From positions 60,001-92,000 of the forward strand of contig JBJLBP010000001.1 of assembly GCA_045568075.1 (NCBI GenBank): DNA of 32,000 nucleotides, in the 5' to 3' direction. This DNA comes from Candidatus Thalassarchaeaceae archaeon (GTDB lineage Archaea > Thermoplasmatota > Poseidoniia > Poseidoniales > Thalassarchaeaceae). Under the pieces are notes generated by a model. It worked only from the letters and a program-made list of their open reading frames with translations. It did no database searches and had not been told where the DNA came from. Made by a program: the position numbers and the translations under genes. Positions 6,574-29,757 of this stretch are shown piece after piece. How positions within the stretch are numbered: position 1 is the first letter of the stretch; every line of letters begins with the position of its first letter.

Positions 6574-7968
6574 TCAGGGTCGCAATTTGGCCTTCGCCGC
6601 CTGCACGTCTTTGTCATCGGGCTCGGCCTCGACAGCTGCAGCAATCATCTGGTCGACGGCCGAAGCCCGTCCAACTCTCTGCAATAACGCGCCGATTGGA
6701 TAGAGCAATTTGGTCCGGTCACCCAAGTGAGGCCCGACCTCATCGAGAAGGACCATCACCTGTGCCACATTTTTGCGCTTGGCCTCCTCCATCGCTTCCT
6801 TAATCTTCAGAGCGACTTCTCTATTCGGCCATTCTTCCTGTTGCGGCCACGGCCAAAATCCATTGTTTTCCGGCATATCCAGAGCCTCATTGGCCTGAGC
6901 GATGTGAGGCATTGTCGGAATTTTCGGTATTCGCGGGATTCGTGGTGGACTTGCTCCACCATCGAAGGCCGCATCCATTGGATCGACACTTTTGGCGACG
7001 GCTGGATTTGGAGGTGGGGGCATTCCCGCAGGTGCGGCAGGAACCACAATCGGAGGTTGAGGAGCTGGTTTTGGCACTGGTTCTGCCTCAGACTTCGGCT
7101 CAGGCACCGGCTCGGCAACTTCCTCAATTTCCTGAGGGCCGGCAATAATTCTAGCAGCGAGTTCGGCCTTGGTTCCGGATGGTGAGAGGCCTTCTGCCTC
7201 GGCCATTTCTACCAATTCGACCTTCTTCAACAAGAGTAATGATTTCTCGGTAATCTCTGTTGATTCGACCTGCGTCTCGACAGCCACCTCAGGTTCGGCT
7301 TCAGATTCTTCCTCGGCATTCTCGGGCTCGGACTCAACCTGAGGCTCTATCTCCGGTGATTCCTCAACCGAAGGAGCGGGTTTCTCCGCTGCCGGCGCTG
7401 GCTCGGAAAAAGAGCCATTTCGATCAGGGATCGCATCGGCGGCAACGACCTCAACGGTCTCCGCCGATTCAGCAGTCGGTTGAATGAGTTCAATCTGCTG
7501 AGATGGAACTTCTTCAAGGGGCTCAGGCTCGCTCTCCGGCATCTCAAATTTGGTGACAAAGGCCGGAGCATCCGCTGCAGTTAGTTCGTAGTCCCCCTCT
7601 TCTTCGTCGACCGGATCGGGATTATCTACAGTCATCGCGAAAGTCGGGTTTCCACTGACTTTGATTCCGTCGTCCTTGCCATATTGTTCGACATCGATTG
7701 TGACATCATCCATGGTGAAAGTACCCTTCGACCAATCGATGACCTCCTCCTCTTCATCTTCATCAAAATCGGCTAGCAATTCGTCGAAAAGAGTACCTGC
7801 TTCTTTGTCATCGATAGAAGCTACCTGCTCGAATGCAGCCTTGCCCAATTGGTACATACATTGGGAGCACTGCATCGTATCCTCAGGATTCAATGTGTGA
7901 CACAGTGGGCATTCAACAGTAGGTCCGGCTGCCCCCTTACGCCAGTTCTTGAACTTGTCAAATACCAT
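6574..7968 (-). CDS. Hypothetical multi-domain protein: N-terminal zinc ribbon, long acidic disordered region, SAP/HeH-like motif, proline-rich segment, C-terminal helical domain
   Basis: CPLCHTLNPEDTMQCSQC (CxxC..CxxC) sits near the N-terminus, followed by ~200 aa rich in D/E/P. LLLLKKVELVEMAEAEGLSPSGTKAELAARII resembles a SAP/HeH DNA-binding motif. A PxP-rich stretch (PKPAPQPPIVVPAAPAGMPPPPNP) follows. ATG at 7968 is preceded by SD-like AGAGGT and by TTATAC (8015-8010 on the minus strand). Confidence 0.6.
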   Translation of the reverse strand: MVFDKFKNWRKGAAGPTVECPLCHTLNPEDTMQCSQCMYQLGKAAFEQVASIDDKEAGTLFDELLADFDEDEEEEVIDWSKGTFTMDDVTIDVEQYGKDDGIKVSGNPTFAMTVDNPDPVDEEEGDYELTAADAPAFVTKFEMPESEPEPLEEVPSQQIELIQPTAESAETVEVVAADAIPDRNGSFSEPAPAAEKPAPSVEESPEIEPQVESEPENAEEESEAEPEVAVETQVESTEITEKSLLLLKKVELVEMAEAEGLSPSGTKAELAARIIAGPQEIEEVAEPVPEPKSEAEPVPKPAPQPPIVVPAAPAGMPPPPNPAVAKSVDPMDAAFDGGASPPRIPRIPKIPTMPHIAQANEALDMPENNGFWPWPQQEEWPNREVALKIKEAMEEAKRKNVAQVMVLLDEVGPHLGDRTKLLYPIGALLQRVGRASAVDQMIAAAVEAEPDDKDVQAAKAKLRP

Positions 7969-14985: not shown

Positions 14986-15303
14986 ATGGGTCGAGTGATC
15001 AATGCTGGTGATGCTGATTTTGAGGCAGTGACGAAGAGCGATGAATGGGTAATTGTTGACTTCTGGGCCCCATGGTGCGGTCCGTGTAAGATGATCGCGC
15101 CTATGCTTGAGCAAGTCGCTGGGGAGCGCGAAGTTACCGTGGCTAAGGTCAACACCGACGTTAACCCCCTCTCCGCTGGTAAGTTCGGCATTCGAGGTAT
15201 TCCTGCCCTTCTCCTATTCCATAACGGAGAACTCATAGATCGGCAAACTGGTGCAATGCCTAAGCCGATGTTCGACCAATGGTTGAACCGTTACATGAGT
15301 TAA
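14986..15303 (+). CDS. trxA: Thioredoxin
   Basis: The WCGPC active site appears as VDFWAPWCGPCKMIAP, with GIRGIPALLLF downstream. 105 aa. Confidence 0.9.
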   Translation: MGRVINAGDADFEAVTKSDEWVIVDFWAPWCGPCKMIAPMLEQVAGEREVTVAKVNTDVNPLSAGKFGIRGIPALLLFHNGELIDRQTGAMPKPMFDQWLNRYMS

Positions 15304-16850
15304 TCGAGAGAATCACGAAGTTTGCGAGCACGCTCTTCGAGCGGCGCTCCGACTTCTCTCAAGAGACGGGATCGGAGCGCTTCATGCAACCACATGCCAC
15401 TCTCCAGTTCTAGCATGAGGCCACGAGTGACTAGGGCTTCTGGCGGCGTTCCATCGTATCCTGCGGCCGCTGCCAGATTCTCCCATGGAATTGGTCGGTC
15501 AGCAACCGCGAGCAGGGCCAGTAATTCTCTGTGGTCGGATGGAAGAACATCGAGGATCTCCTCGTCAAGGAAGCGTAACCAATCATCGTGCAGAGTTTTG
15601 CCGTAGAGTTCGAGCAATTCCACCGCAAGAGGGTGGCCTCCAGTGGCACGATGAATCTCCTCGGCTGGCGCGTCAGAAGGGAGTTCGATGGATTCGAGCC
15701 AAGCGGCAATCTCCTCGAGAGAGAGGCCGGTGAGGCGGAGTTCGACGACGCGACCGCGAGTATGCACATCGCGTCGGTCATAGAATGCAAGATTGGTTCT
15801 AGAGACCAGTAGCAGACGCATGCTGGTCGATTCGGCGACCTGTAGTAAGGCTCCGAAGAGATAATCTCCGTCAGCGGAGATATTGTGAACGTCATCGATG
15901 ATCACAAGGATTTCACCTGTCGCAGACTCACGCTTACCCTCCTCATCAGTCAAATGTGCGGTCAAACGGCGGCGCAGTAAGTCGATATCGAGGCGGGCCC
16001 CTGGCTTGAGAGGAAGCGCTTCTAGGACTCCATAAGGGTCCTGGCCGTCTTCATCCGAACTGATTTCGAGCCTGTGGAGCAAGCTCGTCGCAATACCCAG
16101 TGTGGTATCCCACGGCTGGCATGGATAGTACATCACCGAAAGGTCGGAACGAGTCTCCAAAGCGTGTGCAAGCCAATGGCTGGACAGAGTTGTCTTCCCA
16201 CAACCTGCGATGCCAGAGATCACTGCCATTGAGGCATCTCCCGAGAACCATTCGTCGAGAGTTCCAACCTCTTCTTCACGCCCGTGAACAGTTCGAGTCT
16301 CGGGTGGCCTTGTGTGATATGTCGAATGCGCTCCGGCCAGTAATTTGAGAGAGCCCGGAGCGAGCTTTTCTTCACTTTCAGTACGCACAATTGCACCAAA
16401 TCGAATGTCGCCGAAGTTCAGCACACCCTCGTGCTGCGCGTGCATAAGCACCTGAAGCAAGGTCAAACCTGTCTCAAGTCGAGCACCGGCCTCATCCGCC
16501 CGAATCTCCAAGAGATTCCCATCGCGCTCGCGCAGCAAAACCTTCGTCTGACGCAACTCAAGTAAGCGACGAGTGACCTGTTCGCGCCCCTCATCGGTCA
16601 ACTGCCAAGTCTTCTGCCGCCTTTCATCGCCGCGAATAACACGTGTGTGTTCGCTAACCATACCATCGAGATCTAAATCACGCATTGTACGCGATACATT
16701 AGGTGGATGAAGGGCACAAATCTCAGCGATTCCCGGCCGAGTCACCTCACGGTTGACGAGATAGTGATCGGCCTGGTGATCCTGCTCCCAAAGGTGCAAT
16801 AGAATTCGATCGGCAACAGCGATGTTCACCTTACTCACAGGTTGCGCCAT
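15300..16850 (-). CDS. Winged-helix DNA-binding domain fused to a STAND (MalT/AP-ATPase-like) P-loop NTPase; putative transcriptional regulator
   Basis: The N-terminal wHTH is GIAEICALHPPNVSRTMRDLDLDGMVSEH..RRQKTWQLTDEGRE. Walker A is ISGIAGCGKTTL and Walker B is ILVIIDDVHN. The STAND GxP-type motif is ATGGHPLAVELL. ATG at 16850 is 4 nt after the peptidase stop. The track's GTG start is at 16871. Confidence 0.65.
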   Translation of the reverse strand: MAQPVSKVNIAVADRILLHLWEQDHQADHYLVNREVTRPGIAEICALHPPNVSRTMRDLDLDGMVSEHTRVIRGDERRQKTWQLTDEGREQVTRRLLELRQTKVLLRERDGNLLEIRADEAGARLETGLTLLQVLMHAQHEGVLNFGDIRFGAIVRTESEEKLAPGSLKLLAGAHSTYHTRPPETRTVHGREEEVGTLDEWFSGDASMAVISGIAGCGKTTLSSHWLAHALETRSDLSVMYYPCQPWDTTLGIATSLLHRLEISSDEDGQDPYGVLEALPLKPGARLDIDLLRRRLTAHLTDEEGKRESATGEILVIIDDVHNISADGDYLFGALLQVAESTSMRLLLVSRTNLAFYDRRDVHTRGRVVELRLTGLSLEEIAAWLESIELPSDAPAEEIHRATGGHPLAVELLELYGKTLHDDWLRFLDEEILDVLPSDHRELLALLAVADRPIPWENLAAAAGYDGTPPEALVTRGLMLELESGMWLHEALRSRLLREVGAPLEERARKLRDSLD

Positions 16851-16854
16851 CGAG

Positions 16855-18705
16855 TCACTCCTCCACGACACACTGAGGATATGGATCGGACATCATTGGC
16901 GGCATGAACAAGTCATCACAGCCTCGCTCTACCGTCGATAAGGAGAGAATGCTCGTCGCCCCAACACCAACCGTCACAGGTTGCATCGAAACGGGGCTAG
17001 GGATGTAGTCCTCTCCAGTCTGAGAGATGATCAAATGGATTCCATCGCCGGCAGGAATCAATACATCCATGCCAAAGAATTCCATCTTGGCATTCACCGT
17101 CTCGCCAGGTCCGAGCACCTCGCCATCCTTGCCACCAGCGTGGAATCTTAGATCCATCACAGCGTGCCCAAGATGCATTCCAGTACTCGCCTGAACCATC
17201 TCAACAAACAGATGACCACTCGTCGAGAAAGCCGACACCGTCGCATCGACATGGAAAGTGGGTGTGCCTACAATCCTCGTATCTTCATCGAAGAAAGGAC
17301 ACTCTATGCGTAGACTCGAAGACGAAGTAATCGTCTCTCCACCACCAATAATAGAACACTGATCCATCCCAACACGTAGCCAATCTTGCTCGGCTGGCGG
17401 ATAAGTCCCCTCGACTCGCCAGCCGCCCATATTGTCCTGAACCTCAGCTATCAGCCGAGGTTGTGGCCCCTCCTCTTTGAGATAGAAATCAAACCACTCG
17501 AGTAGGTCGTCAGCCCAATCCCATCGCAAAGTGAATGGGAATGCTTCACCGCCGCGACCGCTTGAAAGTCCCTGATGCCCACTGAGGCGGTCGGGGTAAT
17601 CGTGCCCCCACTGGCCGTAGAGTCCCTTGACATCGAAGCCAGCGTCTTGCATCATTCGATGGACGGGGAAGGCCATGTGGGGGTCGACATTCCAGTCTTG
17701 CAGTCCGTGGATGATGTAGACCGAGCCAGCGTAGTTTTCCATCGCGCGCGCGAGGAAGTGTCGCTCTTGCCAATAATCAGAGCCCATCCAAGCGAGGTTG
17801 TCGCCAGTGACATACGCAAGCGGTCCAGCATAGTAACCCTCGACATAGCCCTCACAGGCATTCTCGATATCTCCCGAATCACCGTCTAAGCCGAAACTTC
17901 CGTACACGCCGTTGTGCATGATGGCGCCACGGGCTTCCATGCTACCATTGCGCCACATGAGATCCTGTACGCCGATTAATCCAGACATCGGCACGATGGT
18001 CTTGAGATATTCAGAACCCATCGCTGCCGCCTCCCAAGGTGTAGAGCCGTCGTAGGATTTCCCGATGACGCCAACAGCGCCGTTGGAGAAGGGTGCCGTT
18101 CCTAGGTATTCGACGGCTGCGTGGATTCCTTCTTGTTCGTCGAGACCCATGAGGTCCATGCAATGGTTGGAGTTGCCTGTGCCAAAGACGCTGACCTGAG
18201 CGATTCCGAATCCATGAGGTACGAAGTTCTCGATGAGAAAACGACCGAGTCGATTAGCAGGAGTCAGTGCATCGACATCGCCGTCGTCGTAGTAAGGGCC
18301 TATCTCGGCGATGATGGGTACTTTGCATTCTTCTGGAAGTTCTGCCGCATCGTAATCGCAACCTTCGATTTGCGGCAGCCAGAGTCCCAGATGGACTTCA
18401 GCTTCACCGGTTGCGCCAGCGCCTCCGTCAGCCAGAGTGATGGCTGGGACTGAGACGTAGATGGATCGAACTGCATCGATTCCGTGACTGCCGTTACTTG
18501 AGACGCGACTGAATACGTCGCCATTCTCGTAGGTCATCTGCTCGCGATCTTCGACTGGCGGTAGCCAATGGTCTGAATCGTTAGAACCACCACCAATGAC
18601 ATCGTTGCCGAAGCAGCCCGAAAGCATCGGGGCCACGAAAAGCAACACGAGAACTAGGCTCGTTGTGGTGCGAGACACGCGCTTCGCGCGTCTTGGCGCA
18701 CTCAA
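16855..18705 (-). CDS. Secreted S15 family peptidase (Xaa-Pro dipeptidyl-peptidase / CocE-NonD hydrolase), probable lipoprotein
   Basis: The nucleophile motif GxSYxG appears as VIGKSYDGSTPW. An N-terminal signal with a lipobox-like LSGC (RRAKRVSRTTTSLVLVLLFVAPMLSGCFG) is present, as is a C-terminal beta-sandwich-like region. The start is non-ATG (TTG at 18705 or GTG at 18678). Confidence 0.75.
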   Translation of the reverse strand: MSAPRRAKRVSRTTTSLVLVLLFVAPMLSGCFGNDVIGGGSNDSDHWLPPVEDREQMTYENGDVFSRVSSNGSHGIDAVRSIYVSVPAITLADGGAGATGEAEVHLGLWLPQIEGCDYDAAELPEECKVPIIAEIGPYYDDGDVDALTPANRLGRFLIENFVPHGFGIAQVSVFGTGNSNHCMDLMGLDEQEGIHAAVEYLGTAPFSNGAVGVIGKSYDGSTPWEAAAMGSEYLKTIVPMSGLIGVQDLMWRNGSMEARGAIMHNGVYGSFGLDGDSGDIENACEGYVEGYYAGPLAYVTGDNLAWMGSDYWQERHFLARAMENYAGSVYIIHGLQDWNVDPHMAFPVHRMMQDAGFDVKGLYGQWGHDYPDRLSGHQGLSSGRGGEAFPFTLRWDWADDLLEWFDFYLKEEGPQPRLIAEVQDNMGGWRVEGTYPPAEQDWLRVGMDQCSIIGGGETITSSSSLRIECPFFDEDTRIVGTPTFHVDATVSAFSTSGHLFVEMVQASTGMHLGHAVMDLRFHAGGKDGEVLGPGETVNAKMEFFGMDVLIPAGDGIHLIISQTGEDYIPSPVSMQPVTVGVGATSILSLSTVERGCDDLFMPPMMSDPYPQCVVEE

Positions 18706-20360: not shown

Positions 20361-20431
20361 ATTGAACCACTGAGGCACAGACAACACTGGGTCTGAGGAA
20401 TTACGAAAGGCACGAGCGTGTGAGCGTAGTC

Positions 20432-21481
20432 ATGGCTGAGCGCTCGTTGGAGGGAGTCGCGTCGTTCGTACGTGACTTAGGCAGCGCCTGCTCAGCAGTC
20501 CGGCTCGTCGGTGATATGCTGCTCGCTGGCTCGCACGATGGCTTGCTGCTTTGCTTGGATGCTGCGACTGGGGGCGAGCGCTGGCGATTACAGGTCGATG
20601 GGCCTGTGTCGGATATTGCGCTCGATAGCGATCGTGTCTATGCAACCGCGTCAGCTTCACTGCACGCGGTCGACGCGGCTGGCGGTGAGTTGCTGTGGAG
20701 CCGCGAGTTGGAAGGAGCCAGTGATTACGTCCAGGCAGGGGATGGACATGTCTGGGCGACCTCATCAGTCTACGAATTGGAGGTTGCAGATTTTGTCGAA
20801 GCGACCGTCTGGCGATTCGATGCTGGTGGTGATGAACAGGAACGCTGGGTTTTCGCCGAGAGGCCTTGGCATGTCGGTCTACACGCAGATGGAGGCATTC
20901 TGCTTGGATTGGGCCGGCCTCGTTGTGGCTATTTGAGAATTGAAACTGGACAGAAAACCGAGCATTTCGAACTCGATAATGAGAGCCCTGTGACCTGTGG
21001 GGCTTGTGATTCGGCCGGTCGCTTCTTGTTTGGGCATGCAGATGGCACGATTAGCTCAGTTGGTTCGGTCGAAGCCAGTGAAAACCCCCGTGAATCCTTA
21101 GTGACCGCTTTGGCACCTAGTGATTCAGGATGGGTTTCCGGTCACGACGATGGAACTATCGCAACTTCTGACTCAACGGTGACGGCACCAGGCTCAATCG
21201 ACGCGGTCGCGAGTCTAGGCCCTAATGCGTGGGCATCGTCATGGAACGGATCCACTCCGACTTTGATGATTCTACAATTTGGAACGATCTCTATCGATGC
21301 CCGCGTACGCCAGATGCATTCCTCAGAAAGCTCCCTGGCGCTCGGCGATGACCTCGGAAGAGTCTTCCTCATCGAATCCGAGGTCGTCGGCCGGAGATTA
21401 TCAGACAATGAAGAAACATCTCCGGAAGACTTCCGGAATTCGGAGTTAAGAGCACGCCTCAGGATGTTAAGAAACAGGTGA
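20432..21481 (+). CDS. PQQ-like / WD40-like beta-propeller repeat protein
   Basis: Repeated motifs of the type LLAGSHDGLLLCLDAATGGERWR and LHAVDAAGGELLWSREL support the call. The C-terminus is a charged tail. ATG at 20432; the track's GTG start is at 20420. Confidence 0.6.
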   Translation: MAERSLEGVASFVRDLGSACSAVRLVGDMLLAGSHDGLLLCLDAATGGERWRLQVDGPVSDIALDSDRVYATASASLHAVDAAGGELLWSRELEGASDYVQAGDGHVWATSSVYELEVADFVEATVWRFDAGGDEQERWVFAERPWHVGLHADGGILLGLGRPRCGYLRIETGQKTEHFELDNESPVTCGACDSAGRFLFGHADGTISSVGSVEASENPRESLVTALAPSDSGWVSGHDDGTIATSDSTVTAPGSIDAVASLGPNAWASSWNGSTPTLMILQFGTISIDARVRQMHSSESSLALGDDLGRVFLIESEVVGRRLSDNEETSPEDFRNSELRARLRMLRNR

Positions 21482-21500
21482 TTGCGCATCTCGCAGCGCA

Positions 21501-21534
21501 CTGGAAATTAACACCTAGAGACCCCTATTTCCAG
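21501..21534. terminator. 8-bp perfect inverted repeat (CTGGAAAT ..18 nt.. ATTTCCAG) just after the beta-propeller gene
   Basis: Read directly from the sequence, 20 nt downstream of the stop at 21479-21481. Function as a terminator is inferred. Confidence 0.3.
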
Positions 21535-21553
21535 TCCACAGTGCCTCATTCGA

Positions 21554-21566
21554 CGAAAGGTTTATG
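21554..21566 (+). promoter_or_regulatory. BRE/TATA-like box (CGAAAGGTTTATG) upstream of the structured purine-rich region
   Basis: A purine-rich BRE-like CGAAAGG is followed by TTTATG. It matches 9 of the first 10 positions of the box 30 nt upstream of the M32 gene ATG (18821-18834). The predicted start is near 21588-21595. Confidence 0.3.
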
Positions 21567-21752
21567 CACCCCTGCCGCACAGACCTAAGTTGCCGCTCTG
21601 GGAGAGTGGTGTGGGGCGCGCTTCGGCGCAAACCGCGGGCCACAGAACCGAACCCCGAACTCGGGGTGGTAGAACCGGAAACCGCAAGGAATCCGGGGAC
21701 GATCGAACCTGGCACTTGGACCAGGGGAGATGCGGTCGAACCGAAGTGGAGA

Positions 21753-21811
21753 GAACTGGACGAAAGGAAAGGGAACTGGACGAAAGGAAAGGGAACTGAA
21801 CTCAAGGAAGG
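21753..21811 (+). repeat. Tandem 20-nt purine-rich repeat: two perfect copies plus one diverged copy
   Basis: GAACTGGACGAAAGGAAAGG occurs at 21753-21772 and again identically at 21773-21792. It is followed by GAACTGAACTCAAGGAAGG at 21793-21811. Confidence 0.85.
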
Positions 21812-21920
21812 GGAAGGAAGCGGAGGGGGAAGCTGGGGAAAACACAACCGCAACGCGCAAGCGAGGAAAACGGAACCGTGCCAGCCAACCAGACCGCGAG
21901 TGCATCGGCGAAGGGGGAGA

Positions 21921-21939
21921 GAACCGGACGAAAGGAAGG
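21921..21939 (+). repeat. Dispersed copy of the purine module (GAACCGGACGAAAGGAAGG)
   Basis: It differs from the tandem unit by one substitution and one missing A. Confidence 0.75.
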
Positions 21940-21983
21940 CGATACGAACCTGAGGCGGATCCACGGGGAACAAAGGAGGAAAA

Positions 21984-22002
21984 GAACCGGACGTAAGGAA
22001 GG
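21984..22002 (+). repeat. Dispersed copy of the purine module (GAACCGGACGTAAGGAAGG)
   Basis: 18 of 19 positions are identical to the copy at 21921-21939. Confidence 0.75.
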
Positions 22003-22333
22003 GGAAAAGAAACCGGAGAGAAACGTGGCGGGAACGAGAGCGCGGAGACGCGTGGAGGACCGGCACTCATTCCAACGAACGAACCGGCGAGAGCCGGGGA
22101 GGGAAGTGGAAACGCAGAAACGGGGAGCGATCCCGGTGGAAGCGGAAACGACAGAAGAGCTCCTTGGAGCGCTCGAGTCATCTACCCGGGGAGAAACCGG
22201 CCTTCGGGCCGGGGACGAACCGGACCCTGCGGAGTCAGCAGGGGGGGATGCTCCCCCATGTGCAGAACCCCCTGCTGCTCCCACCTTGTACCAAAGTACG
22301 GATGCGGCCCATTCCATCAGATTATCAATCATT

Positions 22334-22352
22334 GCGGAGCGATTCGCTCCGC
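22334..22352. terminator. Perfect 8-bp hairpin GCGGAGCG att CGCTCCGC
   Basis: Read directly from the sequence. It lies 77 nt downstream of the fumC stop (minus strand) and at the 3' edge of the candidate RNA (plus strand), so it could terminate either or both. Confidence 0.35.
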
Positions 22353-22428
22353 TGAGCTCAGTTTCGAATGGTCCGAGCGGAAGCCGAATTCATCATTTCG
22401 CAAAGCAAGAGATTTGTACCGTCTAGGT

Positions 22429-24030
22429 TCACTGCTTCGGGCCAATCATTTCCTTAGGCTTGACCCACTGATCGAATTGATCATTGGTGACTAGCCCTAA
22501 TTCGAGAGCTGATTCGCGCAGAGTAGTGCCATTCAGATGCGCGTGCTTAGCAATCTTTGCAGCGTTGTCGTAACCGATGTGATTGTTCAACGCCGTAACT
22601 AACATCAGACTATTCTCGAGGTGCGATGCAATCACACCCTCGTTCGCCTCGAGTCCGTTAACGCACTTGTCGGTAAATGCCCTGCATACATCGGATAGGA
22701 GACGTGTGCTGTGGAGTAAATTGTGGATCATCATCGGCTTGTAGACGTTGAGTTCGAAGTTGCCTTGACTGCCACCGATACTGATTGCAGTGTGGTTCCC
22801 AATCACTTGACAACAGACCATCGTCATGGCTTCGGCTTGTGTTGGATTGACCTTGCCAGGCATGATACTTGACCCTGGTTCGTTGGCTGGAAGAGACAGT
22901 TCTCCGAATCCACAGCGAGGTCCAGACCCCATCCATCGAATGTCATTGGCAATCTTCATCAGGCTCGCAGCAAGCGTGTTTAGTGAGCCTGATACGGCTA
23001 CTATTGCATCGTGTGCTGCGAGTTGAGCAAATTTGTTTTCGGCCGAGACAAATGGTAGACCAACCTTCTCAGCGATACGTTCGGCAACCTTGTCTGCGAA
23101 TTCAAAATGAGTGTTGAGGCCAGTGCCGACCGCAGTTCCACCTAGTGCGAGTTCGAGGAGATCATCCCAAGCAGCCTCTATGCGACGGAGGTCGGCGGCT
23201 ATCATCGAGGTGTAGCCACCGAATTCCTGGCCGAGGGTGAGGGGAACGGCATCCATCAAGTGAGTGCGGCCGATCTTGACAATGTTCTCGAATTCGTCGG
23301 CTTTGGCCGCCAGCGCGTTGTGCAGAAGGCGGATTGCTGGCAGGAGTCGGTTGTGGATTTCTTCTGCAGCTGCGATGTGCATCGCGGTCGGGAATGTATC
23401 ATTGCTTGATTGACCGCGATTGACGTGGTCATTTGGGTGGACTGGAGACTTACTTCCTAGTTCACCACCGGCCATCTCAATGGCTCGGTTGGCGATGACC
23501 TCGTTGGAGTTCATATTGGTCTGTGTGCCGGAACCGGTTTGCCAGACTCTGAGTGGGAAATGCTCGTCCAACGCTCCTGAGATTACCTCGTCGCAGGCGG
23601 CTGAGATGAGTGCTCCAATCTGAGGGTCAAGCTGACCGAGTCCAACATTGGTCTCTGCAGCCGCCTGCTTGAGTATGCCGAAGGCTCGGATTATTGAGGG
23701 ATCCATGGTATCGGTTCCGATGTCGAAATTTATCAGTGAACGAGCGGTTTGGGCTCCGAAATAGCGGTCTGCTGGAACTTCAAGTTCGCCCATTGTGTCC
23801 TTTTCGAGACGAACAGTCCCGGTTGCTCCCGAAGCTGCTCTGGGCTCGCTGGCTCGTTGCGTCGTTGGCACCGTTTGCTCGGTCTCGAGGTTGTTCTGGA
23901 TCATTTTCGCAATCGTCGCTGACCGACCCTGGCCACGACCCTTTCCTACACGCCTATCGAGCTTCTTTGCGAGGTCTTCTGGTATGCTAATACTGATGAT
24001 TCGGCGGTCGCCCGCCCGGTGTTTCGCCAT
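22429..24030 (-). CDS. fumC: Class II fumarate hydratase with an in-frame N-terminal ribbon-helix-helix (CopG/Arc-like) domain
   Basis: The FumC core runs from [30 protein letters not shown] and includes [37 protein letters not shown] and the signature [17 protein letters not shown]. The N-terminal ~45 aa ([40 protein letters not shown]) has a strand-helix-helix RHH pattern and is joined by a ~25-aa low-complexity linker. There is no stop between the two parts. Confidence 0.85.
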
Positions 24031-24667: not shown

Positions 24668-25063
24668 TTAGGCAACCATCGACCCAGGTAGTATGCCATC
24701 AGGCAATTCCAGCAATCGGACCGTTCCATCGGGATCGAGGGCACCAAGAACCAGGAATTGGCTGACAAAACCTGTTGGCAGAGTCTTGTCACCCAAGTTG
24801 AGTGCGCCAACCACAGTCCGGCCAACCAAGTCAGACCGTGCGTAATTGGTAATTTGCGCAGAACTCCACCTGCGCCCAATAACCGGCCCGAAATCGACCT
24901 CGATCTTGTAAGAGGGCTTGCGCATCTCGGGAAATTCCTCAACTCGGAGAATCACTCCGGCGCGGAGATCCTGCTCGAAGTAAGCAGCAGCGCCGACATA
25001 TTCCTTCTCAGCCAACTTTTCGGGATGGTAAGGTTCGCTCGAATCGATGACGTGCGAGTCCAT
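24668..25063 (-). CDS. csaA: tRNA-binding domain protein (CsaA/Trbp111-like)
   Basis: The sequence DLRAGVILRVEEFPEMRKPSYKIEVDFGPVIGRRWSSAQITNYARSDLVGRTVVGALNL..FVSQFLVLG parallels B. subtilis CsaA. Confidence 0.8.
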   Translation of the reverse strand: MDSHVIDSSEPYHPEKLAEKEYVGAAAYFEQDLRAGVILRVEEFPEMRKPSYKIEVDFGPVIGRRWSSAQITNYARSDLVGRTVVGALNLGDKTLPTGFVSQFLVLGALDPDGTVRLLELPDGILPGSMVA

Positions 25064-25788: not shown

Positions 25789-28700
25789 ATGGTCGGAGCA
25801 GATGGTCCAGAAGTGGTGGTCGATGAAGCCCGACTTACCCACGAAATGGAGTCATACAGCCTCTGGCTTGACGAGCGAACGGAGGAGGCTTACCGCATCG
25901 CTGGTGAGGCTCGCTCGAAGGGTCTTGATTTCGCTGACGTGGTTGAGATTCCTCGCGCTGCTGACCTTGCCAGTCGCACCGAGAAATTGCTCGAAGATTA
26001 TCTCCGCCCGGAGCCAGATCAGGAACCACTTCGAATCGAGGATGATCTTCGTAAGTTGTTGAGTCGGGTCGACCGCGAGGCGGCTTCGATTCAGATTGCG
26101 GTCGATGTCGCAAAGCGAATGCACGCACTAACCGCAGATGTCCGGCGCTCAATCGATACCGGTTTGCGTGTGGGGCTTGCAGTTCTGACCGAGGCGGTGC
26201 TGGTAGCACCGCTCGAAGGAATCGGAAATGTCAAGATTCTCAACAATGAGGATGGAAGCGAATTTCTCTCAATCGAATTCTGTGGCCCAATCCGTGCCGC
26301 GGGAGGGACTGCGCAGGCTCTCGGTGTGCTGATTGGCGATATGGTCCGCCGTGAGCTCGGGCTTAACCGATACATCCCAACGACGCCTGAAGTAGAGCGC
26401 GTCAAAGAAGAGTTTGGCTTGTATCGAGCCGGTATGCAGTACAAGCCGCCACCCGAGGAGATCGAAATCATCGTCCGCGCCTGTCCTGTGATGATTAACG
26501 GCGAGGCGACTGAACAAATCGAGTGCTCGGGCTACAAAGAAGTCCGCAATATCGAGGGATCGAGGGTCCGCGGTGGTGTGATGCTGGTCATTGGAGAGGG
26601 TCTTTGTCTCAAGGCTCCAAAGATCCAGAAACATACTGAAAGGTTGAAAATTCCTGGTTGGGAATTCATCGCACATTTCGCCTCCAAGGGCAAATCCGAC
26701 GATTCCGAATCCACATTCAAACGCCGAATCATCAAGCGCGATGACCGTTTTCTCGACGATGTCATCGCTGGGCGCCCGGTCTTTGGTGAGCCATGTGAGC
26801 CGGGCGCATTTCGGCTGCGCTATGGGCGCAGCCGAGCCTCAGGTTTAGCGGCGGCAGGGATTAATCCGGTTTCGATGGAAGCGATGGGGTCATTCCTAGC
26901 AATCGGCACTCAGATGAAGACTGAGAGACCGGGGAAAGCAGCCGCAGTGACCCCTTCTGTGGATATCGAAGGGCCATCGGTTCTACTCGATGATGGTACT
27001 TTCAAACGCATCGATACGGCTACAGAATGGCGCGATGTGAGTGACCGAGTCGTCTCGCTGTGGGATAGTGGAGAGTTTCTGGTTGGTTTCGGTGAATTCC
27101 TTGAGAATAACAAGAATCTAGTTCCTTCGCCATACAATCGGGATTGGTGGGCAGCCGACCTTGCGGAGGCGCTAAACCAGCCACAGAAAGTAGATTCACT
27201 CGCGGAAATTTTGGGGTTGAGTCGCGAACAGATGCCTCCTGGCTTAGCATTCAACGGTGCCATCAATCGAGGAGGTGAGCCTGCACTCGAACGTGCTCGT
27301 CGGCGCCGCGATTGGAATCGATACTTGCGCGGGCTCGACTTGACGTGGGAGCAAGTCCGAAGCATCTGCCTCTCCTTTGGAACTGCACCACCGCCCCCAT
27401 TCAATCCGTGGTGGTCAGACCTACCACTCTCCTTCGCACCGCATTTGATTGAGGCTTTGCTATCTTCCAAGGTTGAGAGCCGAGGTTTACGAATCCCTGG
27501 TGTCGTCAAAGGTTGGACTCCAGAACAACACCTCGAGGATGTAGGTCTTGACACTCCTTCGACTGGTGTCTGGCCGCGCTGGACAGAAGTACAGCGTCAC
27601 GGTGTAGTAAAATCCTCACTATTGGTTCTCGGAATCCAGCATCATCACAAGCGCGGCGATATCGTCATTCCCTCTCTCTGGGAGCCTCTAATCGATGGAC
27701 TAGGGCTTGAACTGGATGGATCGAGCATTCGCCAGAGAACAGAGGCTGGCCCGCACGTTACCGATCGAGTAGCACGTATCAGAACAGCAACGAATACCAT
27801 TCGCGAAGAGGATGAGCGCCTAGCCGAAATCGAAAACGCGCGCAATGTCGAACGCATACGTGAGCAAACTTCCGCGCGCCAACGTGGAATGAGTATCGGA
27901 GAGACCGAAGCTGCCGGTGATGAGGCTGCAGCAAAAATCGAAGACCCTGGTGCCCCAAACCCGCAGGAATTGATGGCGGCTCGCCACCTTCTCGACGACC
28001 ATGAGGTCGACCGATCTCTGTGGCTAGCCCGCCGCCTCTCTGAATTGAGATGGGAAGACGCTGTATCATGCCGCGTTGGTTCAAGGATGGGGAGACCAGA
28101 GAAAGCTAGCAGGCGCGAGATGAAACCGCTAGTCCATTCGCTATTCCCAATCGGCGATCATGGAGGTCCACAGCGGCTCCTCGGTCACGCAGCATCGAGA
28201 GGAAGAGTGCGAGTAGACGCTGGTCCACGTATCTGCAAGAAATGCGGGATGGAATCTCCTATGCTTCGCTGCCATAACAGACCAGACCCCGGGGTGGCCG
28301 AGGAGTGCGGTGGCAAAACCAAGCCAAGACCCCTGCGAGGAAACAGAAGACCTCGTAGACTCGGACAGAGAACCAGCATTCCGGTAGCCGCCCTGATGGA
28401 AGTTAAACGCCGCTCACTTGGTCTCGATAGGCTCCCCGAACGCATCAAGGCAGTGAAGGGGCTAATGTCGTATCATCAGACCCCAGAACCACTTGAAAAA
28501 GGCATACTGCGGGGCCGCCATAACATCTCTGTATTCAGGGACGGCACTGCTAGATACGACATGATTGACGTGCCTGTCACCCACTTCAAGCCCTCAGAAA
28601 TCAATACCTCGTGGGAACTCCTCACTAATCTCGGCTACACCCACGATGTCGATGGAAATCCACTGACAAACGATGAACAAATTCTCGAGCTTTATCCTCA

Positions 28701-29757
28701 GGATTTCATCCCATCAACCCTCGCCATCGATCACCTGAAATCCACTTGTGATTACATCGATGAATTGCTCATCCGATTCTACGGCATGGACCCATTCTAC
28801 AAGATTGAGTCAGCCGATGACCTCGTTGGCCATCTCGCAATCGGCCTCGCACCGCACACCTCCGGCGGAGTGCTTTGCCGCATCGTCGGATGGACTGACG
28901 CCTCCGCCGGCTACGCCCATCCACTCTTCCACGCCGCAAAACGTCGCAATTGTGATGGTGATGAAGATAGTATCATGATGCTCATGGATGGATTGTTGAA
29001 TTTCTCCAAATCCATCCTACCTGCAAACCGTGGAGGACGCATGGACGCACCTCTAGTTCTGACCACGCGATTGAACCCCTCTGAGATCGATAAAGAGGCT
29101 CTCAATGTCGACTGCTCGTGGCAATATCCGCGCTCATTCTATGAGGCCACGCGCGAGCAACCGCATCCTTCTGAACTCAAGTCACAAATCGAAATCGTTG
29201 AGCATCGTCTCGGCACAATCGGCGACCTGCGCGGCTATGGTTGGACACACGACTCCGGTGCCCTCGATGCCGGACCTGCAAATTCATCCTACAAGACTCT
29301 GGAGACAATGGTCGACAAAATGAACGCGCAGTTGGCTTTGGGAAGTCTCCTCCGCCCCGTTGACGTCTCAAGGGTTGCCAGTCAGGTCATCGAGTCTCAC
29401 TTCCTGCCTGACCTGCGTGGCAACCTCGTAGCCTTCACTCGGCAGAAAGTGCGCTGCGTACGATGTGGCCATTCGTATCGGCGAATGCCTTTGGCGGGAA
29501 GATGCATACAAAGAAAACAGAATGAAGGAGGCTTGTCGAATGGACGTGATGATGGGTCATCTATGTGTAGTGGGAATGTTGTGTTGACCGTGTCCGAGGG
29601 CTCTGTTCGCAAGTACATCAAAGTCACCCGACACGTCATCGAAAACTACGGTGTCAACCTTTACACACAGCAACGAGTCGACTGGCTTTCTGACAGCGTC
29701 GACTCGCTTTTCAACGATGATACAGTCACAGTAATGACGCTTGGCGACTTCCTTTGA
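25789..29757 (+). CDS. polC: DNA polymerase II (PolD) large subunit DP2
   Basis: The N-terminus YRIAGEARSKGLDFADVVEIPRAADLASRTEKLL is DP2-like. Other blocks are RMGRPEKASRREMKPLVHSLFPIG, the catalytic FHAAKRRNCDGDEDSIMMLMDGLLNFS, and C-terminal VRCVRCGHSYRRMPLAG...VVLTVSEGSVRKY. An alternative start is ATG 25846 (MESYSLWLDE...). Confidence 0.9.
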   Translation: MVGADGPEVVVDEARLTHEMESYSLWLDERTEEAYRIAGEARSKGLDFADVVEIPRAADLASRTEKLLEDYLRPEPDQEPLRIEDDLRKLLSRVDREAASIQIAVDVAKRMHALTADVRRSIDTGLRVGLAVLTEAVLVAPLEGIGNVKILNNEDGSEFLSIEFCGPIRAAGGTAQALGVLIGDMVRRELGLNRYIPTTPEVERVKEEFGLYRAGMQYKPPPEEIEIIVRACPVMINGEATEQIECSGYKEVRNIEGSRVRGGVMLVIGEGLCLKAPKIQKHTERLKIPGWEFIAHFASKGKSDDSESTFKRRIIKRDDRFLDDVIAGRPVFGEPCEPGAFRLRYGRSRASGLAAAGINPVSMEAMGSFLAIGTQMKTERPGKAAAVTPSVDIEGPSVLLDDGTFKRIDTATEWRDVSDRVVSLWDSGEFLVGFGEFLENNKNLVPSPYNRDWWAADLAEALNQPQKVDSLAEILGLSREQMPPGLAFNGAINRGGEPALERARRRRDWNRYLRGLDLTWEQVRSICLSFGTAPPPPFNPWWSDLPLSFAPHLIEALLSSKVESRGLRIPGVVKGWTPEQHLEDVGLDTPSTGVWPRWTEVQRHGVVKSSLLVLGIQHHHKRGDIVIPSLWEPLIDGLGLELDGSSIRQRTEAGPHVTDRVARIRTATNTIREEDERLAEIENARNVERIREQTSARQRGMSIGETEAAGDEAAAKIEDPGAPNPQELMAARHLLDDHEVDRSLWLARRLSELRWEDAVSCRVGSRMGRPEKASRREMKPLVHSLFPIGDHGGPQRLLGHAASRGRVRVDAGPRICKKCGMESPMLRCHNRPDPGVAEECGGKTKPRPLRGNRRPRRLGQRTSIPVAALMEVKRRSLGLDRLPERIKAVKGLMSYHQTPEPLEKGILRGRHNISVFRDGTARYDMIDVPVTHFKPSEINTSWELLTNLGYTHDVDGNPLTNDEQILELYPQDFIPSTLAIDHLKSTCDYIDELLIRFYGMDPFYKIESADDLVGHLAIGLAPHTSGGVLCRIVGWTDASAGYAHPLFHAAKRRNCDGDEDSIMMLMDGLLNFSKSILPANRGGRMDAPLVLTTRLNPSEIDKEALNVDCSWQYPRSFYEATREQPHPSELKSQIEIVEHRLGTIGDLRGYGWTHDSGALDAGPANSSYKTLETMVDKMNAQLALGSLLRPVDVSRVASQVIESHFLPDLRGNLVAFTRQKVRCVRCGHSYRRMPLAGRCIQRKQNEGGLSNGRDDGSSMCSGNVVLTVSEGSVRKYIKVTRHVIENYGVNLYTQQRVDWLSDSVDSLFNDDTVTVMTLGDFL

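Follow-up and report, generated by a model that had tools for sequence, protein, structure and literature searches.

Large Structured RNAs of Bacteria and Archaea

OLE, GOLLD, ROOL, raiA and HEARO are bacterial non-coding RNAs of at least 0.4-1 kb, whose functions are unknown or only recently emerging. They have their own promoters, many covarying helices, GNRA and UUCG loops, a variable periphery around conserved parts and a narrow phylogenetic range. To our knowledge, unexpected biology has so far lain behind each large ornate RNA of bacteria, and, apart from rRNA, RNase P RNA and SRP RNA, we know of few non-coding archaeal RNAs that are large and structured. Few archaea of the surface ocean are more abundant than those of Marine Group II (MGII), none of which has ever been cultured. 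Transcriptome studies of this group identified canonical RNase P RNA (292-306 nt) and SRP RNA (305-315 nt), which match the Rfam models RF00373 and RF01857, respectively (PMC5069720). The same work described Tan1 (Thalassoarchaea ncRNA 1), an abundant 229-nt RNA whose function is unknown, whose secondary structure is complex and conserved, and whose homologues are approximately 75-79% identical (Hou et al., 2016, Sci Rep 6:35470; PMC5069720).

The RNA gene described here lies in a 32,000-nt stretch of Thalassarchaeaceae DNA (the window). It shares with OLE, GOLLD, ROOL, raiA and HEARO its size, promoter, covarying helices, GNRA and UUCG loops, variable periphery and narrow range, but differs from them in its archaeal host, its lack of an Rfam match, its fixed chromosomal site (as opposed to phage or mobile elements) and the concentration of its conservation at the termini. 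Archaeal RNase P RNA (RF00373) and SRP RNA (RF01857) offer a second likeness, being stable, structured, protein-bound RNAs with their own promoters and helices that join their ends; however, the present RNA is two to four times larger, matches neither model and has an interior that is unconserved between sister genera. Tan1 is likewise a structured non-coding RNA and has its host clade (Ca. Thalassoarchaea, i.e., MGIIb) in common with the present RNA, but it measures 229 nt against 435-1258 nt for the present family, the two being compared by description only, and part of this RNA may already have been described as Tan1.

Locus, Promoter and Distribution

The gap between the convergent genes at 20420-21481 (+) and 22429-24030 (-) had been described in the original prediction as gene-free (21482-22428), open in all six frames and devoid of a believable protein, and indeed none of its six-frame open reading frames (ORFs) matches Pfam. 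The prediction of a large structured + strand RNA starting near 21590 was also borne out; every homologue retains the core of the promoter and the 5' end. On comparative grounds, 21591-22286 (+) is established as a large, highly base-paired non-coding RNA gene, with independent transcription from its own BRE/TATA promoter indicated and the transcript and its ends predicted (transcription start 21591 ± 2; conserved 3' end CUCCCACCU). The BRE/TATA-like box had been placed at the correct distance from this start: its core, invariant as AAAGRTTYA in every homologue, always lies 26 nt 5' of TGCYGC, and the AAAGGTTTA core is the sole perfect match within the window. The composition of 21590-22286 is heavily skewed (G263, A205, C170, T59), with an AT skew reaching 0.78 and a GC content of 0.58-0.63 for the region; the reported scarcity of T (18 in the 360 nt of 21781-22140) is exact. 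This base skew explains why all six frames are open.

A palindrome upstream of the promoter (Table 1) is present in all four subgroups of the RNA (A-D), with a third GGAAAA half-site in groups B-D, and its half-sites co-vary within group A. A regulon search within the window found no copies beyond this one (chance expectation 0.08). It would serve either as a transcription-factor site or as the hairpin that terminates the upstream propeller gene, and its conservation suggests regulated transcription. At the other end, the original 3' boundary of about 22350 had to be moved inwards, given that the conserved RNA stops at about 22286 and 22288-22352 is a less conserved trailer, kept only among closer relatives. 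This trailer probably serves as a common terminator region for the RNA and the convergent fumarase gene, whose stop codon lies only approximately 95-140 nt from the 3' end of the RNA.

Approximately 60 of 80 Poseidoniales genomes carry a homologue at the same site, as do 120 marine metagenome contigs, which were retrieved with a combined pattern of promoter and 5' hairpin. All homologues are of Thalassarchaeaceae (MGIIb) types, and the RNA is absent from the corresponding site of MGIIa loci; as far as sampled, the family is confined to the Thalassarchaeaceae (Marine Group IIb), with one copy per locus. Among contigs long enough to tell, a cytoplasmic-looking beta-propeller gene lies upstream in 83 of 83 and a convergent class II fumarase gene downstream in 41 of 41. 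This synteny may reflect general conservation of gene order and not a functional link. A cis-acting regulatory transcript, which would act by convergent interference, as an antisense to the fumarase 3' end or as a structured 3' extension of the propeller mRNA, would fit the invariant position between both genes, the short distance to the fumarase stop codon and the regulated transcription that the palindrome suggests. Such a role is improbable, however, for an RNA with its own conserved promoter; transcriptional interference needs no hundreds of covarying pairs, and the RNA, which stops short of the fumarase gene, therefore lacks extended complementarity to its neighbours.

Table 1. Positions in the window of the RNA gene, its structural parts and its flanking elements.
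Feature	Position	Strand	Description
Palindrome TGGAAA-N19-TTTCC	21502-21533	unassigned	20-55 nt upstream of promoter
BRE/TATA promoter	21554-21566	+	core AAAGGTTTA at 21556-21564
RNA gene	21591-22286	+	about 696 nt; nhmmer and blastn conservation begins and ends at these points
5' terminal hairpin UGCCGCUCU-GGG-AGAGUGGUG	21591-21611	+	9 bp, G-U-rich, 3-nt loop
Hairpin GCGC[UUCG]GCGC	21618-21629	+	double changes in 4 of 4 pairs
Long-range body-closing helix, 5' strand CCGCGGG	21633-21639	+	partner CCCUGCGG, 22225-22232
Three 5'-domain hairpins	21647-21670, 21675-21696 (GCAA loop), 21703-21730	+	compensatory changes, helices 6-10
Central domain	21733-21896	+	closed by CGGUC/GACCG, 21733-21737 with 21892-21896
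Tandem 20-nt hairpin module GAACUGGAC-GAAA-GGAAAGG	21753-21812	+	two good copies and one degenerate
Extra module copy GAACCGGAC-GAAA-GGAAGG	21921-21942	+	repeat family D1
Long hairpin CCACG/CGUGG	21961-22028	+	carries ancestral module, 21984-22005
Hairpin GCGCG[GAGA]CGCGU, then group-A-invariant block CGUGGAGGA (22051-22059)	22029-22062	+	helices 26-28
Hairpins 22072-22109 (inner CCGGC[GAGA]GCCGG) and 22121-22136 (GCGA loop)	22072-22136	+	helices 29-31 and 33, all covary
Conserved block GAGUCAUCUACCC and hairpin CCGG...CCGG (22186-22223)	22174-22223	+	encloses CGGCC[UUCG]GGCCG
Long-range closing helix, 3' strand CCCUGCGG	22225-22232	+	overlaps universally conserved GCGGAG (22229-22234)
3' terminal hairpin	22231-22281	+	GGAG/CUCC, 10-bp stem CAGCAGGGGG/CCCCCUGCUG, internal loop, small apical stem-loop
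3' tail, end of CUCCCACC(U)	22282-22286	+	CTCCCA in all groups; conservation lost just 3'
Trailer	22288-22352	+	hairpin GUAC[CAAA]GUAC, conserved block UUAUCAAUCAUUGCGGAG, hairpin 22334-22352

Covariation and Secondary Structure

The consensus structure of group A was derived from a 39-sequence alignment. Its 141 consensus pairs are 92.8% paired, compared with 34-46% when partners are slid, and 75 of them show compensatory (double) changes, compared with 17-28 in the slid controls. Neither the observed pairing nor the observed number of double changes was reached by any of 500 shuffles, and the covariation score was 0.325 against approximately 0.06 for the control. Compensatory changes were also found in group B (120 of 367 pairs), group C (65 of 188) and group D (20 of 140); covariation is strong in all four subgroups. 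The proposed comparison of folding energy with shuffled sequences went the other way: the window sequence itself folds no better than its shuffles (z of -0.34 and -1.81 for the + and - strands, respectively). Two relatives gave z values of -5.87 (L065) and -5.60 (L064).

The + strand orientation is supported by the direction of the promoter, the strand bias of tetraloop hairpins and the pairing itself (92.8% on the + strand against 88.5% when read on the opposite strand, with G-U making up 5.8% of paired cells). The strand-specific loops noted earlier are real, with seven UUCG or GNRA hairpins on the + strand, counting stems of 3 bp or more, and none on the - strand; dinucleotide shuffles yielded a mean of 2.2 and reached seven in 1 of 500. 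The individual hairpins of the original prediction are all in the sequence, and most match covarying helices (21618-29, 21653-66, 21675-96, 21708-25, 21854-63, 22041-52, 22084-97, 22123-34, 22197-212 and 22236-45/22268-77), but the one at 22159-70 falls outside the consensus structure. By eye, the 22159-70 hairpin is kept in close relatives within the alignment. The motif GAACC(G/U)G had been counted at least 12 times; the strict form GAACC[GT]G accounts for only 7 occurrences within the gap, compared with 12 over the + strand of the window as a whole, and it is the looser GAACYKR that reaches 12 in the gap.

The suggested closing helix of 21599-604 with 22278-83 was displaced by other pairings, since 21599-604 lies inside the covarying 5' terminal hairpin and CUCC (22278-81) pairs with GGAG (22231-34). 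The 5' terminal hairpin is found in all subgroups as UGCYGCUCY-NNN-RGAGYGGYG and covaries (CG/UA at the loop-closing pair; G-U to G-C in homologue L068). RNAalifold predicts, in two alignments, that the body of the RNA is closed by the long-range helix listed in Table 1; it is 99.6% paired but invariant, so covariation cannot prove it. The helix that closes the central domain does covary (UA/GC, 18:18; CG/AU, 19:19). Within this domain, the tandem module array (period 20, 3.2 copies and 90% matches according to TRF) is a 40-nt insertion present only in the closest relatives of the window, and the extra module copy downstream is missing (9-nt gap) in most other group A sequences. The closing helix of 21961-22028 shows double changes in four of five pairs, and in the ancestral module that it carries one pair is CG in 24 sequences, UG in 10 and UA in 5, with an invariant loop-closing C-G.

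Towards the 3' end, the block GAGUCAUCUACCC has a core (UCUACCC) that is invariant in group A, and its last three bases start the hairpin 22186-22223, in which helices 35-36 covary (GC/CG, GC/AU). The architecture of the 3' terminal hairpin is alike in groups A-D, with covariation in helices 37-39, and its internal loop consists of GGA (22246-48) opposite GAA (22265-67). Read from the sequence, the loop of the modules is identical to this internal loop; modules of the GGA/GAA-GNAA type exist only in group A.

Subgroups and Growth of the Interior

Only the 5' terminal hairpin, the 3' hairpin with its purine-rich internal loop and the CUCCCAMC tail are common to all four subgroups, which cover the length range given above and include a group D form of 436 nt. 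Sequence conservation across subgroups is limited to approximately 35 nt at the termini, with five shared hexamers, including GCGGAG. The interior is fast-evolving, densely hairpinned and not conserved between sister genera, and it grows through duplication of modules or domains. The modules number between 2 and 6 copies and are inserted in differing places, and in long group B RNAs the 3' domain and terminal hairpin are tandemly duplicated. The best conserved part of group A is the 5' domain of approximately 230 nt.

This last feature bears on the possibility that the RNA is a precursor cut into smaller stable RNAs, with the fragments as the functional species. One of them could be Tan1, an abundant MGIIb RNA of complex structure whose homologues are 75-79% identical (PMC5069720), and in group B the 3' terminal hairpin and tail recur internally, in a second copy that could be a processing signal. 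The matching passages of a second MGII transcriptome paper (PMC9723583) contain nothing on the locus. We regard a precursor as unlikely, though the most credible of the alternatives considered here, given that the long-range helices (21633-39/22225-32 and 21733-37/21892-96) tie distant parts together, which argues for one folded unit.

Coding Potential and Known RNA Families

A low-complexity, intrinsically disordered protein, rich in E/K/R/G on the + strand or in P/S/F on the - strand, could be proposed given that several frames contain ORFs of 129-198 aa and that MGII has been reported to express 'disordered protein' genes at very high levels. This idea is effectively refuted. The open frames are explained by base skew, and the compensatory pair changes run throughout the RNA. 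Furthermore, variability by codon phase has no period-3 signal (0.196, 0.194 and 0.188), 72 of 80 indels have lengths that three does not divide, most homologues have stops in every frame, and a search of 5.8 billion protein clusters at E<=1e-5 found no relatives. Together with the Pfam result, these tests effectively rule out a protein-coding gene.

By similarity search, the family is previously uncatalogued. None of the 4227 families of Rfam 15 matched the window or seven homologous loci at the gathering threshold, in line with the earlier view that the RNA is neither RNase P RNA nor SRP RNA nor a member of any nameable family; the models left unmatched include those of group I and II introns, GOLLD, ROOL, OLE, HEARO and raiA. 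The housekeeping style of this archaeal RNA, with its paired ends and its GNRA and tandem G-A loops, might suggest an RNase P or SRP RNA that has diverged or expanded. Short resemblances are also visible to the eye, of ACAGAACC to RNase P CR-V and of the GGAA-type hairpins to SRP helix 8. These likenesses (ACAGAACC, the GGAA-capped hairpins and, in L064, a possible P3 with a GGAAGUC-like segment after it) are unsupported by Rfam: RF00373, whose model covers the P1-P4 core and CR-I to CR-V, and RF01857, whose model covers the Alu and S domains and the helix 8 loops, had no match at E<=10 in 21400-22500 of the window or in the less skewed homologue L064. The order of elements fits neither family and MGII has separate canonical copies of both RNAs (PMC5069720), which leaves this identity, too, effectively refuted.

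Several other identities were considered and rejected. Box C/D sRNAs are defined by a C box (RUGAUGA), a D box (CUGA), a K-turn by the terminal stem and a length of approximately 50-70 nt. Only chance-level matches to such RNAs were found (snoPyro_CD at 14.4 bits against a threshold of 45, at 22365-22400 on the - strand and outside the RNA; sR10 and sR36 in L064 at E 4-9). K-turn or L7Ae sites were dismissed because the GA-rich loops are symmetric (3x3 or 4x4) and have no 3-nt bulge. A replication origin or centromere-like array, suggested by the recurrence of GAACC and by PolD and AAA+ genes in the vicinity, does not agree with a GC-rich, strand-asymmetric region that has a promoter and RNA covariation. 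A group II intron or retroelement RNA, suggested by a GUGUG motif near the 5' end, was rejected given the lack of an Rfam match and the fixed, syntenic locus; no reverse-transcriptase domain was seen among the flanking genes scanned. Mimicry of the 16S rRNA 3' end (CCUGCGG...CUCC) was set aside because the match is confined to subgroup A.

Proposed Function

The best overall explanation, to which we assign a probability of roughly 0.55, is an RNA gene whose product works as a scaffold. Our best guess at the function is a protein-bound scaffold RNA, i.e., a transcript that would act as RNA, most likely in a ribonucleoprotein. In this model, the terminal hairpins would protect against exonucleases and bind a conserved partner. 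In the lineage of the window, the extra modules, each with a GGA/GAA loop under a GNAA tetraloop, may add binding or docking sites and would make the RNA a multivalent scaffold or sponge. The scaffold proposal draws on the restriction of sequence conservation between subgroups to the termini, on the variable number and placement of the modules, on the identity of the module loop with the internal loop of the 3' hairpin, and on the duplication of the 3' domain in group B.

The idea of multivalent binding comes from the sponge RNAs CsrB and RsmZ, which, as here, have repeated GGA hairpin modules whose copy number varies between lineages. However, the modules described here are embedded in a large RNA that folds globally and has long-range helices, and they occur in subgroup A only; this restriction means that they cannot be the core function of the family. 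A ribozyme or other RNA machine has also been considered, with an active core formed by the terminal hairpins and their junction and an interior that would serve as peripheral scaffolding. Large catalytic RNAs typically have such a size and such a dense, covarying structure with numerous GNRA and UUCG loops, and the closing helices bring together elements conserved across all subgroups. We nevertheless consider catalysis a poor prospect, as the approximately 35 nt conserved across subgroups leave little for an active site, no Rfam ribozyme family is matched and neither a substrate nor a cleavage site is evident.

Significance

We put at even odds the broader proposal that this is a new class of archaeal RNA of 0.44-1.26 kb, distinct from Tan1, which forms the core of a lineage-specific ribonucleoprotein of MGIIb, is perhaps among the most abundant transcripts of these marine cells and adds hairpin modules and domains in its interior. 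In the Red Sea, 13 'disordered-protein mRNAs' made up 93% of MGII RNA-seq reads, and some of these could be ORFs miscalled on this RNA. The ORFs called in the gap, and perhaps other 'disordered protein' genes of MGII, may be artefacts over RNA genes. The restriction of the RNA to one of the two MGII families provides a marker that tells the families apart. The 436-nt form is a tractable target for structure determination and for the pull-down of partners from recombinant MGII proteins, and a new ribonucleoprotein in MGIIb is likely.

Locus and distribution

The original prediction of a large structured non-coding RNA on the plus strand has proved real as a finding and is supported as an interpretation. 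The gap that holds the RNA measures 947 nt and separates a PQQ-like beta-propeller gene from a convergent fumarase gene, the product of which is 96% identical to fumarases of Candidatus Thalassarchaeaceae MAGs. This places the window, a piece of an archaeal chromosome, in Marine Group IIb of the Poseidoniales. Homologues are present in related genomes. Among 80 Poseidoniales loci collected around fumarase, the gap sequence is conserved, being ~80% identical where the fumarase protein is ~90% identical, and 66-70% identical where fumarase is 76-79%. Gap conservation begins right after the stop codon of the upstream gene and takes in the invariant GAAAGGTTTA; conservation of the RNA spans TTGCCGC to GCTCCCACCT (22277-22286) and is lost beyond.

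Full-length copies were recovered by nhmmer in ~40 loci, and other Marine Group IIb (MGIIb; Thalassarchaeaceae) loci, which scored nothing, carry a diverged RNA of other length in the same place, with the same promoter and 5' hairpin. A metagenome scan using the promoter-plus-5'-hairpin pattern found at least 120 marine contigs. Among the matches listed, all homologues sort into four subgroups, with 90 contigs in A, to which the window RNA belongs, 39 in B, 13 in C and 5 in D. Lengths within the family range from 435 to 1258 nt. Where the listed contigs are long enough, the propeller gene lies upstream on the same strand in 83/83 and fumarase lies downstream and convergent in 41/41. The RNA could act in cis as a regulator of these neighbours, which we regard as improbable. 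No such RNA was found beside fumarase in the MGIIa (Poseidoniaceae) loci examined, in which fumarase adjoins DP2 or a 318-aa protein lies between the propeller gene and fumarase.

One contig with an archaeal fumarase and a group D RNA (L071, CAXRJJ010000018.1) has been assigned to a 'Yoonia sp.' MAG, which is bacterial, likely through binning contamination. An apparent 670-nt insertion in locus L011 (~7160-7927) was discarded because it consists of Ns, left by masking or by a gap in the assembly. The fumarase has an N-terminal extension of ~70 aa, also found in MGIIa orthologues without the RNA, with a weak ribbon-helix-helix match (RHH_1, residues 12-40, E 6e-4). The window also encodes a 523-aa protein, for which no NCBIfam match was found, and a 131-aa protein 2.3 kb from the RNA gene (Table).

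Features of the RNA locus, in window coordinates
Feature	Position	Strand	Remarks
523-aa protein	15300-16871	-	N-terminal Crp-like HTH, AAA_16/AAA_22 ATPase domain
PQQ-like beta-propeller gene	20420-21481	+	upstream of gap
Palindrome TGGAAA-N19-TTTCC	21502-21533		20-55 nt upstream of promoter
Promoter core	21556-64	+	predicted start ~21591
5' terminal hairpin, 9 bp	21591-21611	+	UGCCGCUCU-GGG-AGAGUGGUG
UUCG hairpin	21618-29	+
Long-range helix	21633-39/22225-32	+	predicted; CCGCGGG with CCCUGCGG
Three 5'-domain hairpins	21647-21730	+	covary
Central domain closing helix	21733-37/21892-96	+	covaries 18:18 and 19:19
20-nt tandem repeat	21753-21815		GAACTGGACGAAAGGAAAGG
Further hairpins	21961-22028, 22029-62, 22072-109, 22121-36, 22186-223	+
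3' hairpin, outer closure	22231-34/22278-81	+	GGAG with CUCC
3' hairpin, stem, 10 bp	22236-45/22268-77	+
3' hairpin, internal loop	22246-48/22265-67	+	GGA/GAA, then small apical stem
3' tail CACC(U)		+	after 3' hairpin
Trailer and hairpin	22320-22352		putative terminator
Fumarase gene, class II, 533 aa	22429-24030	-	convergent, downstream of gap
131-aa protein	24668-25063	-	putative tRNA-binding domain (PF01588)
PolD large subunit DP2	25789-29757

Evidence for a folded RNA

Every hairpin listed in the original prediction was found in the sequence, and the loops are strand-specific as claimed: when stems of 3 bp or more are counted, the plus strand has seven UUCG or GNRA hairpins and the minus strand has none. 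Dinucleotide shuffles gave a mean of 2.2 tetraloop hairpins and reached seven in 1/500. RNAalifold folded a group A alignment of 39 sequences (A1) into 90 pairs, half of which (45) show compensatory double changes, and a fuller group A consensus holds 141 pairs. On the plus strand, 92.8% of cells are paired in the group A consensus (34-46% in controls in which the partners were slid), 75 pairs are changed on both sides (controls 17-28) and the covariation score is 0.325 (controls ~0.06); the observed values were reached by 0/500 shuffles. Compensatory covariation was likewise found in group B (367 pairs, 95% paired, 120 with compensatory changes), group C (188 pairs, 65 with such changes) and group D (140 pairs, 20 with such changes), for each of which the slid controls were 34-52% paired. 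The minimum free energy of the window sequence itself does not beat that of shuffles (z -0.34 on plus, -1.81 on minus), so that this one sequence fails the energy criterion of the original prediction, yet the comparative evidence overrides this failure. In family members with less base skew, folding is much more stable than in shuffles (z -5.87 in locus L065, -5.60 in L064).

Read on the other strand, the group A structure is 88.5% paired. The plus strand is supported by promoter direction, the 7:0 tetraloop count and the frequency of G-U pairs, which are commoner on that strand (5.8% of cells). The long-range helix is unproven by covariation because it is invariant. The closing helix first suggested (21599-604/22278-83) was abandoned, since it clashes with both the 5' hairpin and the GGAG/CUCC pairing.

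The BRE/TATA-like box proposed to start a transcript near 21590 was upheld as a predicted promoter, the box and the RNA 5' end being kept in homologues; in diverged MGIIb homologues the box likewise precedes the 5' end by 26 nt. The palindrome further upstream is the single such site in the whole window, is kept in all four subgroups and is accompanied in groups B-D by a third half-site, GGAAAA. This palindrome could serve either to bind a transcription factor or as a terminator hairpin of the propeller gene. Beyond the 3' end of the RNA and short of the stop codon of fumarase lies a conserved trailer, TTATCAATCATTGCGGAG, that leads into the hairpin GCGGAGCGATTCGCTCCGC and repeats the GCGGAG word of the RNA 3' element; it may be a shared bidirectional terminator.

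Coding potential and known RNAs

The count given for the T-poverty of the strand was exact, since 21781-22140 contains 18 T. The composition of the RNA region is G263 A205 C170 T59, with AT skew up to 0.78. The motif GAACC(G/U)G, said to recur at least 12 times, occurs seven times in the gap in its strict form and 12 times only in the looser form GAACYKR. All six frames are open, as described, without a believable protein, and none of the ORFs matches Pfam. A coding gene was rejected and is scarcely credible given flat column variability by codon phase (0.196, 0.194, 0.188), indels between relatives that are not multiples of three (72/80), stops in all six frames in most homologues, and a concatenated six-frame translation that, searched against 5.8 billion protein clusters, retrieved no relative at E<=1e-5.

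Rfam 15 at gathering thresholds gave no match to the window or seven homologous loci. At E<=10, window positions 21400-22500 and the L064 RNA gave nothing beyond chance-level miRNA and snoRNA matches. MG-II transcriptomes contain a canonical RNase P RNA of 292-306 nt, matching RF00373, and a canonical SRP RNA of 305-315 nt, matching RF01857 (Hou et al., 2016, PMC5069720). Since MG-II carries canonical versions of both, there is almost no chance that the RNA is either.

The same study described Tan1 (Thalassoarchaea ncRNA 1, MGIIb), an abundant 229-nt ncRNA of unknown function (PMC5069720), and in our literature search no other paper linked such an RNA with MGII or Poseidoniales. The window RNA appears to represent a large archaeal ncRNA family that is new, the main caveat to novelty being that Tan1 may be part of this RNA. 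The RNA is unlikely to serve as a precursor from which smaller RNAs, Tan1 among them, are cut. In the Red Sea, 13 'mRNAs' for 'intrinsically disordered proteins' made up 93% of MG-II RNA-seq reads, and archaeal reads overall were ~4.5 times fewer in 5'-triphosphate-enriched libraries, a deficit that the authors ascribed to the disordered-protein transcripts (PMC5069720). Some of these 'mRNAs' may reflect ORFs called by mistake on processed ncRNAs of high abundance, such as the window RNA.

Family growth and possible function

Sequence is kept across subgroups at the termini only, where the 5' hairpin retains GAGUGGUG and the 3' element retains GCGGAG and CUCCCA; the interiors are unalignable between subgroups, though each is densely paired. 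Judging from the sequences, size changes arise by duplication. Group A, to which extreme purine skew is also confined, carries a hairpin module, AACYGGAC-GNAA-GGAARGG, in two copies ancestrally, four in the window and six in L025, with differing insertion points. It consists of a C-G pair, a C-G or U-A pair, three purine-purine oppositions (GGA/GAA) and a C-G pair closing a GNAA loop, and its second pair covaries (CG 24, UG 10, UA 5). Insertions at several positions, with up to six copies, are seen in L025 (6700-7553) and L028 (5136-5901, minus strand). In group B the 3' third (~335 nt), terminal hairpin and tail included, is tandemly duplicated, which accounts for the 915-nt and 1250-nt size classes; in L039 (5536-6786, minus-strand RNA of 1251 nt) the duplication takes in the CUCCCAAC tail, with a 78-nt copy at 87% and a 119-nt copy at 97%.

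As far as sequence comparison goes, the RNA is established as single-copy, lineage-restricted and globally folded, with conserved ends and a predicted promoter of its own. That it is a new structured ncRNA acting as RNA and probably protein-bound is, taken jointly, slightly better than an even bet (about 0.55); a ribozyme is a long shot. The 5' hairpin, starting at the start site, and the long, short-tailed 3' hairpin would shield the RNA from exonucleases. These terminal hairpins probably bind a conserved partner, because their sequence is conserved beyond pairing alone. The internal loop of the 3' hairpin recurs in the group A module, and several lineages have independently gained further copies of that module, which together suggest that additional binding or docking sites have been selected for. 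Such selection would make the RNA a multivalent ribonucleoprotein scaffold or sponge, a role that, taken on its own, we rate as somewhat less likely than not.
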